64,000 bases of DNA from Mycobacterium sp. (GTDB taxonomy: Bacteria > Actinomycetota > Actinomycetes > Mycobacteriales > Mycobacteriaceae). Location of the stretch: NCBI RefSeq assembly GCF_965230835.1, contig NZ_CBDDLW010000001.1, forward strand, positions 13,566 to 77,565, given 5' to 3'. The first letter of the stretch is position 1. Every line of letters begins with the position of its first letter. Below the pieces are notes generated by a model. The model did no database searches, had not been told where the DNA came from, and saw only the letters and a program-made list of their open reading frames with translations. Of this stretch, positions 27,170 through 29,593 are shown one piece after another. Position numbers and translations under genes: made by a program.

Positions 27170-27311
27170 GGCTGCGTCCAGATGCCGGTGTAAAAGGCAG
27201 GGCCAGTTTCGCTCCGCTGTTAGCATACGGGCGTCTGGTTCGGCGGCAGGTCGATTCGCGGGTTGGGGGTTGTACGGGCCGGTCGTGGTTCGTGCGCCGG
27301 CGATGTTTGGG

Positions 27312-28118
27312 CTATGAGGGCGCTGGTGGTTGTTTCTGCGTGGTCGAGGTGGCGACCGCAGGCGATTCGGGACGCTGACCAGTGGCGCGACGCGATGCCG
27401 CGGTGATGAGGGTGCGCTGCCAGTCGGGTGGGACCGCAGCGAAGATTCCGCGGTCGATAGTGGCCAGCGCCTGTGCAGCGACCTCGGCGGGGTCGATGCC
27501 GTCGGTGGACATGCCTGTCGAGACCAGGGCGGGGCAGATCATGCTCACGCCGATCGGCGTGTCGGCCAGTGCCAGCGCGGTGTGTTCGGCCACGGCCACG
27601 ACGGCGTGCTTGGAGGGTCCGTAAGCGCCGCCGCTGGGAAAGGTCAGCACCCCAGCCAATGAGCCGGTGATCAGGATGTGCGCGGGCTGGTTCGCGGCCA
27701 GCAGTCTGGGTACGAACGCACGCAAGCCGTTGACAACGCCACCGACGTTGACCGCGAACACCCTGTTCCAGTCAGGAGCGGCCACTTCCCACGGAGCACC
27801 AAAGCTCCTACCGGTGATTCCGGCGTTCAGGCACACGACCCGGGCGTCGCCGGCGGCTTCAGCGAGCGATTCGACCGCATCCGGCATGGCAACGTCAGTG
27901 GGAACCGCTTGTGCCCCCAGTGACTGCGAAACTTCGCTCAATGTGACGGTGTCGATGTCGGCGAGCACGAGGTTGGCTCCACGGTCGGCCAGTGCATGCG
28001 CCAACGCGCGCCCGATGCCACTAGCTGCGCCGGTCACCACCGCTGTCATCCCATTCAGATCCACATTGTGCAGGCTATCGACCACGGCCACGCCGCCGTG
28101 GCAAACGGTTTCCCTCAC
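27312..28118 (-). CDS. Short-chain dehydrogenase/reductase, cargo of the IS256 element; start uncertain
   Basis: TGAASGIG, NAG, catalytic S and YGPSK motifs. Confidence 0.88.
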   Translation of the reverse strand: MRETVCHGGVAVVDSLHNVDLNGMTAVVTGAASGIGRALAHALADRGANLVLADIDTVTLSEVSQSLGAQAVPTDVAMPDAVESLAEAAGDARVVCLNAGITGRSFGAPWEVAAPDWNRVFAVNVGGVVNGLRAFVPRLLAANQPAHILITGSLAGVLTFPSGGAYGPSKHAVVAVAEHTALALADTPIGVSMICPALVSTGMSTDGIDPAEVAAQALATIDRGIFAAVPPDWQRTLITAASRRATGQRPESPAVATSTTQKQPPAPS

Positions 28119-28167
28119 CTCCCCTTACTGGGACCGGGTGGGCGTCGTCACGCGTGCGTGCGCCTCG

Positions 28168-29505
28168 CTACGCCGTGGCGGAGACGGGATCTGCCTGGCC
28201 GGTAGGTGCTTGACTTTGAGGCGGTCGCAGTTGGCGGGGTGAGTCGAGCAGGGATCGGCGTAGGTCTTGCAGCAGTCGGGTGCCGACCGGTGTCATGGTG
28301 AGGCCGCGCCAACCGGCCGAGGCGCGGTCGAGCACGGCCCACACCAGGCTGATGGCGCTGGTCTCGCCGGGGAATCGGCCAATGACCTTGGTCCGTCGCT
28401 TAGTTTCTCCAAAGGAGCGCTCAATGAAATTTGAGTGCCGAACGCGGCCATGGTGTTCAACCGGAAACCGCAGATAGGCGGTCAGCCCTGCTTTGTCGGT
28501 GAGCAGGATCCGCATAGCCGCCGGGTAGAGGTCGGAGTATTTAGCGGCGAACGCCTCGATCCGCTTGTCGACGATCTCAACCAGCTGCGGTCCCGGCTCG
28601 ATACCCAGGCCGGTGGTATCAAAAATCGCCCAGTATCTGTCACGGACCTCGACTTGCATCCCGGTGGGGATCTTCGCAAGCACGTTGCGAAGGCGATGAA
28701 TAAGACATCTCTGGCGCAACGCTTTTGGGTAGATTTGTTCGATGGCTGCGATCAGTCCCTTGGCGCCGTCAGAGACGATCAGCAGCGGAGTGGCAAGACC
28801 GCGTTCGCGCAGGTCGGTCAGGAAGTCGGACCACGCGTCGGTGGACTCTCCGGTCCCGGGTGACAATCCGACGAACACGGGTTTGCCCTCGGTGGTGACG
28901 CCCCAGGCGGCGAGCACAGGCTCGGCCGGCGACCCGGGATGCATCCGAAAGAAACTGGCGTCCAAAAACAGGTAGTCCAGAGCGATCTCACCGAGTGGGC
29001 GACGAGCCCACGCCTGGTATTCGGCCCGGATCGCCTTACAGACTTCCGAAACCGCGGACTTGGAGATCGCCGCCTGATCGCCGAGCGCTTCAGCGAGGGT
29101 GGCCTTGACATCCCGGACGGACAGGCCGCGGATGAACGAGGCGATCACCAGCGTTTCCAGGGCGTTGGTTTTCGTCACATGCTTACCGAACAGCCGAGAG
29201 GCGAACGCTTGCATGGTGCCACGCAGTTTCGGCCGCTCCAAGGTGACCGCACCTGTGGTGGTCTTGATGGTCACCGGCCGATATCCGTTGCGCGAACCGC
29301 CGTTAGCGTCGGCACAGGCGGCGGTACGTTGGTAGCGTTCACGACCGAGGAACTCGGTGACCTCAGCCTCCAGGGCCGCCTGCATCAGTAGCTGGGCGCC
29401 GAGGCGGGCGATTTCTTCAAGGATTTCAGGCAGTTCCCGATCCTCGGCGAACAGGGCGTCGATTTTGGTGCGGATACGGTCGGTCGCTGATACGCGGACA
29501 GGCAC
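28168..29505 (-). CDS. IS256-family DDE transposase
   Basis: SRNGYR, LFLDA, VSDG, QRCLIH and SNFIE motifs; related to but distinct from the 9867-11183 transposase. Confidence 0.95.
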   Translation of the reverse strand: MPVRVSATDRIRTKIDALFAEDRELPEILEEIARLGAQLLMQAALEAEVTEFLGRERYQRTAACADANGGSRNGYRPVTIKTTTGAVTLERPKLRGTMQAFASRLFGKHVTKTNALETLVIASFIRGLSVRDVKATLAEALGDQAAISKSAVSEVCKAIRAEYQAWARRPLGEIALDYLFLDASFFRMHPGSPAEPVLAAWGVTTEGKPVFVGLSPGTGESTDAWSDFLTDLRERGLATPLLIVSDGAKGLIAAIEQIYPKALRQRCLIHRLRNVLAKIPTGMQVEVRDRYWAIFDTTGLGIEPGPQLVEIVDKRIEAFAAKYSDLYPAAMRILLTDKAGLTAYLRFPVEHHGRVRHSNFIERSFGETKRRTKVIGRFPGETSAISLVWAVLDRASAGWRGLTMTPVGTRLLQDLRRSLLDSPRQLRPPQSQAPTGQADPVSATA

Positions 29506-29593
29506 GAGCGTGACTCCTTCTTCGCAGACTTGCAGGTCGTGAAGCGGAACCTACGCGCGTGCTCCCTATTTACACCGGATCCCGGACACGACC

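Follow-up and report, generated by a model that had tools for sequence, protein, structure and literature searches.

Can an insertion sequence (IS) of the IS256 family carry an unrelated, intact gene along with it as it moves? The question is raised by positions 27170-29593 of the stretch of Mycobacterium sp. DNA analyzed here (64,000 nucleotides, contig NZ_CBDDLW010000001.1 of assembly GCF_965230835.1, positions 13,566 to 77,565; hereafter, the window), where a transposase gene and a gene for a short-chain dehydrogenase/reductase (SDR) lie within a single pair of terminal inverted repeats (IRs) and interrupt a gene for an F420H2-dependent quinone reductase (Ddn-like, PF04075). An initial annotation, made from the letters of the window alone, had proposed that transposase and SDR moved together as a cargo-carrying IS256 derivative. 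We are highly confident that the segment is one copy of an autonomous IS256-family transporter IS (tIS), that is, a small unit transposon, with the SDR gene as its passenger.

A 2,424-bp unit present in 17 copies

Read on the minus strand, the element consists of a left inverted repeat (IRL), a leader, the transposase gene, a spacer, the SDR gene, a non-coding segment and a right inverted repeat (IRR), for a total of 2,424 bp. The features of the element and of its target site are as follows (ORF, open reading frame; aa, amino acids).

27047-27169, minus strand: Ddn-like gene, 3' part; rejoins the 5' part in frame, ORF end at 27047
27161-27169, unstranded: target-site duplication beside the IRR, GTGCTCCTC; the same 9-mer stands at 29594-29602
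27170-27194, minus strand: IRR, the transposase-distal repeat; reverse complement GGCTGCGTCCAGATGCCGGTGTAAA; 18/25 matches to the IRL
27195-27311, minus strand: non-coding segment of 117 bp from the SDR stop to the IRR; the ~30 bp nearest the IRR align to the right ends of relatives
27312-28118, minus strand: SDR passenger ORF; longest ORF 268 aa; PF00106/PF13561
28119-28167, minus strand: spacer of 49 bp from the transposase stop to the SDR ORF, with the short palindrome CACGCACGCGTG inside
28168-29505, minus strand: IS256-family (Mutator-type DDE) transposase, 445 aa; PF00872; NF033543
29506-29568, minus strand: leader of 63 bp between the IRL and the transposase ORF
29569-29593, minus strand: IRL, 5' of the transposase; GGTCGTGTCCGGGATCCGGTGTAAA on the minus strand; kept in relatives
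29594-29602, unstranded: target-site duplication beside the IRL, GTGCTCCTC; perfect 9-bp direct repeat with 27161-27169
29594-29986, minus strand: Ddn-like gene, 5' part; PF04075, E=1.1e-30

All coordinates given by the initial annotation for the ORFs, the IRs and the duplication were found in the sequence as it had stated them. The IRs are imperfect, begin with GG and end with GGTGTAAA, and a recount of their 25 bp again gave 18 matches; nothing resembling an IR lies directly 3' of the transposase stop, and the partner of the IRL is indeed found about 1 kb past the transposase, beyond a complete SDR gene. The duplication is likewise perfect on both sides of the unit, and excision of the unit with one duplication restores a 168-aa Ddn-like ORF that is co-linear over residues 3-163 with uninterrupted homologues from M. 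colombiense and other mycobacteria. Each unit has a single transposase gene and a single pair of IRL and IRR, and there is no second IS copy, which rules out a composite transposon. The transposase itself matched the Pfam model PF00872 (Transposase_mut) with E=2.6e-73 over model positions 23-376 of 379, and the NCBIfam model NF033543 (transpos_IS256) with 271 bits, well over its cut-off of 150.

A BLAST search of the genome, covering C1 (142.8 kb) and C2 (4.91 Mb), returned 17 copies of the unit, each exactly 2,424 bp long, gapless, with at most 3 mismatches (99.88-100% identity) and with borders at the tips of the IRs; 14 of the 17 are identical to each other. Such a series of matches goes well past what chance could produce. 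The flanks are distinct at every site, with a perfect duplication of 8 bp at 11 sites and of 9 bp at 5, and an imperfect one at the remaining site. Copies sharing ends and cargo while differing in their 8-9 bp flanks are what the initial annotation had proposed to look for. When the ends were searched on their own, allowing up to 3 mismatches, the genome yielded 17 IRLs and 17 IRRs, every pair 2,424 bp apart, and no solo ends, miniature derivatives, transposase-only copies or transposase-less copies. Transposase and SDR are thus both present in 17/17 copies between ends that are always paired, as expected of genes moving as one unit, and no copy of the transposase ends near position 28120. These copies show directly that the outer IRs are used by the transposase and that the whole 2,424 bp moves together, making 8- or 9-bp target duplications.

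At C2:4403823-4406246, the site with the imperfect duplication, TTCCACTC stands on one side and TTCCACGT on the other, with two mismatches; the element there does not deviate from the consensus, and its precise removal gives back a complete class II aldolase ORF. Among the few differences between copies, 87C>T, located two bases before the transposase start codon, is common to the window copy and C2:4614812 only; transposition was therefore serial, at least one non-master copy having itself moved. None of the 17 copies has a disrupted transposase ORF, and 15 share an identical one; the window copy carries a private G290R substitution relative to the consensus of the 17, and another copy carries F347C. 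No cargo-free short copy of the element was found in the genome, the only other fragment being a 203-bp remnant (C2:3031207-3031409), 83% identical to the 3' part of the tIS transposase gene, that adjoins an IS21 copy and has no IR nearby. This remnant is the only trace in the genome of a second, older relative of the element.

To evaluate the effect of the insertions on host genes, the flanks were joined in silico and one duplication removed at all 17 sites, and 10 junction-spanning ORFs were scanned with Pfam. Full-length Pfam domains extended across the junction in 10/10 of these restored ORFs, which encode a rhodanese, an alpha/beta hydrolase, a MatE protein, a UDP-glucose/GDP-mannose dehydrogenase, a major facilitator superfamily (MFS) transporter, an enoyl-CoA hydratase, a class II aldolase, an SMP-30/gluconolactonase, another SDR and a ModA-like binding protein. 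At least 11 genes, the Ddn-like gene included, have been knocked out by precise insertions. No orthologous empty site in another species was found among six Ddn-like loci, whose homologues are only ~60% identical; the empty-site evidence comes from in-silico excision and from polymorphism between strains.

Independent sequencing runs provided the latter. In the public run X1 (Logan assembler), one unitig corresponds exactly to 27170-29593, with a word depth of 101 compared to ~9 in the flanks, and several different flanks branch from it at the IR tips. Contigs of the coral-metagenome run X5 link the IRR to sequence from C2:~4439840 and the IRL to sequence from C2:~3583170, breaking into the element ends at L113 position 500 and L114 position 532; both sites are empty (continuous) in this genome and in the X1 contigs. 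The X5 junctions stem either from two insertions that this genome lacks or from a rearrangement mediated by the IS; under both readings, strains in nature differ in their element junctions. The element recently multiplied to 17 copies, and the burst is ongoing at the population level. The element was also seen with this genome's own flanks in coral-metagenome runs X5-X7 and X10 and in runs labelled as two other organisms (X8/X9, organism B; X11, organism C); the bacterium is probably associated with marine animals, given these occurrences.

The SDR passenger gene

The passenger is a classical SDR, matching PF00106 with E=1.9e-34 over model positions 2-188 of 195, in which both the cofactor motif TGxxxGIG (VTGAASGIG) and the catalytic YxxxK motif (YGPSK) are intact. 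Its true start is probably the GTG at 28091 or the ATG at 28049, and its sequence is identical across the 17 genome copies. The gene is not a native neighbor of the Ddn-like gene, a possibility that the initial annotation had raised against its own proposal: the SDR part was found in 0/24 same-genus genomes, and no homologue outside the element exceeds 79% identity, the named ones belonging to Saccharopolyspora, Actinopolyspora and Amycolatopsis (Pseudonocardiales) and to Nocardioidaceae, not to Mycobacterium. Furthermore, its content of G and C is 66.5%, compared to 62.4% for the genome. Acquisition from outside Mycobacterium would most simply account for the gene.

Only three members share its cluster at 90% identity among ~15 billion proteins, namely, the genome's own SDR, P0001 (JGI) and P0256 (ENA). 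The gene for P0001 immediately follows that of a 445-aa Mutator transposase, with equal spacing, on a contig of 2,613 bp, and the protein is 95% identical without gaps. P0256, 94.5% identical, is encoded on contig L117, whose DNA matches the element at 95.7% over 995 bp comprising the 3' end of the transposase, an identical stop/spacer junction and the SDR. This homology stops inside the 3' end of the SDR, at unit position 2258 (window 27336), such that the two lineages diverge over the final 25 bp of the SDR ORF and in the segment that follows; the remaining 140 bp (L117:998-1137, ENA ERZ27256514) are unrelated to the right end in the window and lack an IRR, and the SDR ends earlier. The L117 lineage either carries extra cargo past the contig end or preserves an older context of the transposase-SDR fusion. 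A scan of metagenome contigs for the SDR variant returned distant SDRs only. Two further 445-aa transposases, P0242 and P0253, were rejected as partners of the metagenomic SDR, as they adjoin other cargo (glyoxalase, DUF1905) or lie on short contigs.

Over 238 codons, the SDR genes of the window lineage and L117 differ by 21 synonymous and 13 non-synonymous substitutions (dS 0.116, dN 0.026), giving a dN/dS of 0.22 from 34 substitutions only. Because of this ratio, the cargo appears to be under constraint, which supports, short of proving, that the SDR has been under purifying selection while on the element and is a real, selectively maintained passenger.

Relatives and the position of their cargo

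To place the element among its relatives, we compared 80 loci encoding related transposases and built a maximum-likelihood tree of 68 transposases. Distant relatives (74-77% nucleotide identity), found in Streptosporangiaceae, Nostocoides, Nocardia and some Mycobacterium, are 1,475-1,506 bp long, with the IRR ~35 bp after the stop and with 8- or 9-bp duplications. Close relatives (82-89% nucleotide identity), nearly all from Mycobacteriaceae, show a longer distance between IRL and IRR, spanning 2,238-4,952 bp, and exact duplications. Their homology to the window element breaks off 3-48 bp past the transposase stop and picks up again ~57 bp before the right end, and the 49-bp spacer is partly conserved in relatives bearing other cargo, as judged from an alignment of the post-stop regions.

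The genes found in between are diverse. A DUF6933 gene with an ORF of ~200 aa is carried by elements of 2.80-2.94 kb in Mycobacterium sp. 48b (at least 5 copies), M. syngnathidarum and Mycobacterium sp. MBM, as well as in several metagenome-assembled genomes and on the M. fortuitum plasmid CP089609. An NmrA-like reductase and a HupE/UreJ-like membrane protein are found in L008 (3,632 bp), and an MTB12/LppK-like secreted protein in L016 (2,238 bp). In Candidatus Mycobacterium methanotrophicum (NZ_CAJUXY010000003.1, L017:3913-8864), a 4,952-bp element holds merB-merA-merC-merR; its IRs match at 22/25 positions, its flanking repeat is imperfect (GCGGCGCGA versus GGCGCGCGA), and it is a candidate IS256-borne mercury-resistance unit transposon. 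On a metagenome contig, viewed at the protein level, glyoxalase and DUF1905 genes lie behind a 90%-identical transposase. No IRR was found within at least 4 kb downstream of the transposase at L002, L004, L014, L023 and L103.

In the tree, the cargo-carrying elements group together (100/100 support) in a clade whose sisters are canonical short elements, and the cargo occupies the same position in every clade member with mapped ends (2.2-5.0 kb). The initial annotation was right in seeing a cargo-carrying IS256 derivative; in addition, the element is no one-off and belongs to a whole clade of such elements. The most economical reading of these data would be a single origin of the cargo position, followed by repeated cargo replacement. 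It is plausible, if short of probable, that the clade represents a hitherto undescribed lineage of IS256-derived unit transposons, centered on Mycobacteriaceae, that keep their cargo in one set place between the transposase stop and the IRR, where unrelated genes have been swapped repeatedly. The cargo set would then comprise the SDR, the DUF6933 pair, NmrA with HupE, the mer operon, the MTB12/LppK-like gene and possibly glyoxalase with DUF1905.

The two parts of the window element have different affinities. Its transposase nests among the DUF6933 carriers with 96/81 support, while its IRR, which is homologous to those of canonical relatives (z=8-18 versus shuffles), is nearest to the L017/canonical type (32 bp at 94% to L017) and unlike the DUF6933-type IRR. 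The element consequently looks like a mosaic, with its left part from one sublineage and its right end and cargo from another. A decayed original IRR just past the stop (28120-28144) was considered but found no support: when the 100 nt following the stop were locally aligned to right ends (62 nt each) from nine canonical relatives, z was 0.5; the best values of this search in the clade, z ~3 in L023 and L072, are marginal. In the canonical clade, a relative from Nonomuraea zeae (L073:3903-6794) has an IRR-like sequence 2,892 bp from its IRL, with an SDR gene and a MarR-like gene in between, but its flanks show no matching target duplication; this arrangement may reflect an independent cargo capture or chance.

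Proposed mechanism, alternatives and known systems

By analogy with its family, the element would transpose by copy-out-paste-in via a circle with abutted ends (PMC7986276); such a replicative process would let copies build up while the donor is kept. Among the contigs of the runs containing the element, none with an IRR-IRL circle junction was seen. The spacer between transposase and SDR showed neither a sigma-70-like promoter nor a terminator, and because the two genes are co-oriented and only 49 bp apart, transcription of the SDR probably accompanies or closely follows that of the transposase gene, driven by the promoter of the latter or by weak internal signals. As for its origin, the SDR, presumably foreign, probably replaced an earlier cargo in a lineage already holding the cargo position between stop and IRR, a step that is supported but not proven.

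Could the unit instead be non-autonomous, moved in trans by the abundant 1,456-bp IS256 relative of the same genome, its own transposase being irrelevant or inactive? The relative is clearly very active, with 138 full copies at ≥99.5% identity, and shares the outermost and innermost IR motifs (GGT.GCGTC...GGTGTAAA). We nevertheless consider this scenario very improbable, as the transposase ORF of the tIS has stayed intact in 17/17 copies and identical in 15/17. The two transposases are only ~60-65% identical, and the IRs of the two elements diverge in their central 9-10 bp. In addition, the tIS architecture occurs in metagenome contigs, the clade moves in the genomes of other species, and a transposase-less derivative is absent, although trans-mobilization would tolerate one. 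As a source of the repeats, the duplication or recombination of a chromosomal segment, or mis-assembly, deserves practically no weight: IS-rich genomes do rearrange in general, and one copy lacks a perfect duplication, but in 17/17 copies the borders fall exactly on the IR tips, and 16 perfect 8- or 9-bp duplications are of unrelated sequence. Moreover, precise excision restores genes, an independent unitig has the same borders, and occupied and empty sites differ between strains.

The SDR could also be a neutral hitch-hiker, trapped when the right end was lost or replaced and intact, without any function, only because the burst is recent. Selection cannot be read from the genome itself, its 17 copies being virtually identical; no specific subfamily or substrate can be assigned to the SDR; and its C-terminus and the following segment differ between lineages. 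We still regard this explanation as unlikely, given that the ORF is open in three lineages across ~4% nucleotide divergence with a dN/dS of 0.22, and that the cofactor and catalytic motifs are intact. Several points do weigh against an autonomous tIS with a maintained passenger: the single imperfect duplication at C2:4403823-4406246; the window copy, which with its G290R substitution may itself be impaired; SDR matches that fall far below the family cut-offs in NCBIfam and that are generic SDRs in the PDB; the small number of substitutions behind the dN/dS; and the proposed decayed IR past the stop, which as a trace of cargo capture does not rise above chance. On balance, we retain the autonomous tIS as the reading of the 2,424-bp unit.

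Members of the IS256 family include IS256 of Staphylococcus and the mycobacterial IS6120, IS1245, IS1081 and IS2606. The element resembles them in its Mutator-type DDE transposase, imperfect IRs of ~25 bp and 8- or 9-bp duplications; however, the usual member is ~1.2-1.5 kb long with a single ORF, whereas this one measures 2,424 bp and holds ~1 kb with an unrelated, intact SDR gene before the IRR. Because of this second ORF and its length, it is classified as a tIS and not as a plain IS. The term tIS denotes IS derivatives that carry passenger genes; it was first defined for the IS1595 family, and such elements have been reported in several families (PMC3129680; PMC7986276; PMC9330008). Like these, the element combines a single IS-type transposase and an unrelated passenger in one IR pair, moves whole and is flanked by duplications; it differs by its high copy number (17) and by a cargo position common to a whole clade with different cargoes. 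A full-text literature search found no tIS of the IS256 family or of mycobacteria, ISfinder and TnCentral being outside its scope, such that an earlier registration is possible.

The DUF6933 relatives share a transposase 88-91% identical at the protein level, the same IRL, the cargo position and 8- or 9-bp duplications, and are multi-copy in at least one genome. They differ in their cargo (DUF6933 and the ORF in divergent orientation), their IRR subtype (GGTCGCGTCCGAAAGTGGGTGTAAA) and the length of the transposase (447 versus 445 aa); their public annotation reads only "IS256 family transposase" and hypothetical proteins. One-ended or read-through mobilization of the ISEcp1, IS1247 or IS91 type also relies on a single transposase gene to move a downstream gene, but the surrogate right ends used there are poor chance matches that vary per event. 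Unlike these, the right end of the element is a true homologous IRR (z=8-13 versus shuffles), identical in 17/17 copies, and the cargo is therefore a fixed internal part and not the product of ISEcp1-like read-through.

The element extends the known tIS class to the IS256 family and to a mycobacterial host, with no new mechanism. Transporter IS blur the line between IS and transposons, and for few of them has mobility been shown directly. The evidence for this one is unusually complete, combining 17 copies, restored genes, strain-polymorphic sites and a cargo that appears to be under purifying selection. For the host, the dosage of one oxidoreductase gene has been raised 17-fold. If the modular-cargo lineage is real, it would constitute a small natural shuttle that carries genes between the chromosomes and plasmids of mycobacteria, and relatives with the mer operon and other cargoes suggest that it may be a general but overlooked means by which genes pass from one mycobacterium to another. 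An active, high-copy element of a type that tolerates 0.8-3.5 kb of cargo in a mycobacterium would also be a candidate natural cargo-delivery transposon, and a possible starting point for such tools in mycobacterial genetics.

The tIS is one agent of gene loss among several in this IS-swamped mycobacterium (138 + 25 + 17 IS copies), which is also found in coral metagenomes. The 1,456-bp IS256-family element, represented in the window at 9783-11238, accounts for the 138 full-length copies at ≥99.5% identity; its identification as IS2606 of M. ulcerans was rejected, as it has no match to pMUM-type plasmids. An IS21 element (istA/istB, window 24855-26929) accounts for 25 more. Given these numbers, the 17 tIS copies and an estimated genome completeness of 94.5%, the genome looks like one in which IS have recently expanded and genes have been lost, as happens in mycobacteria restricted to a host.

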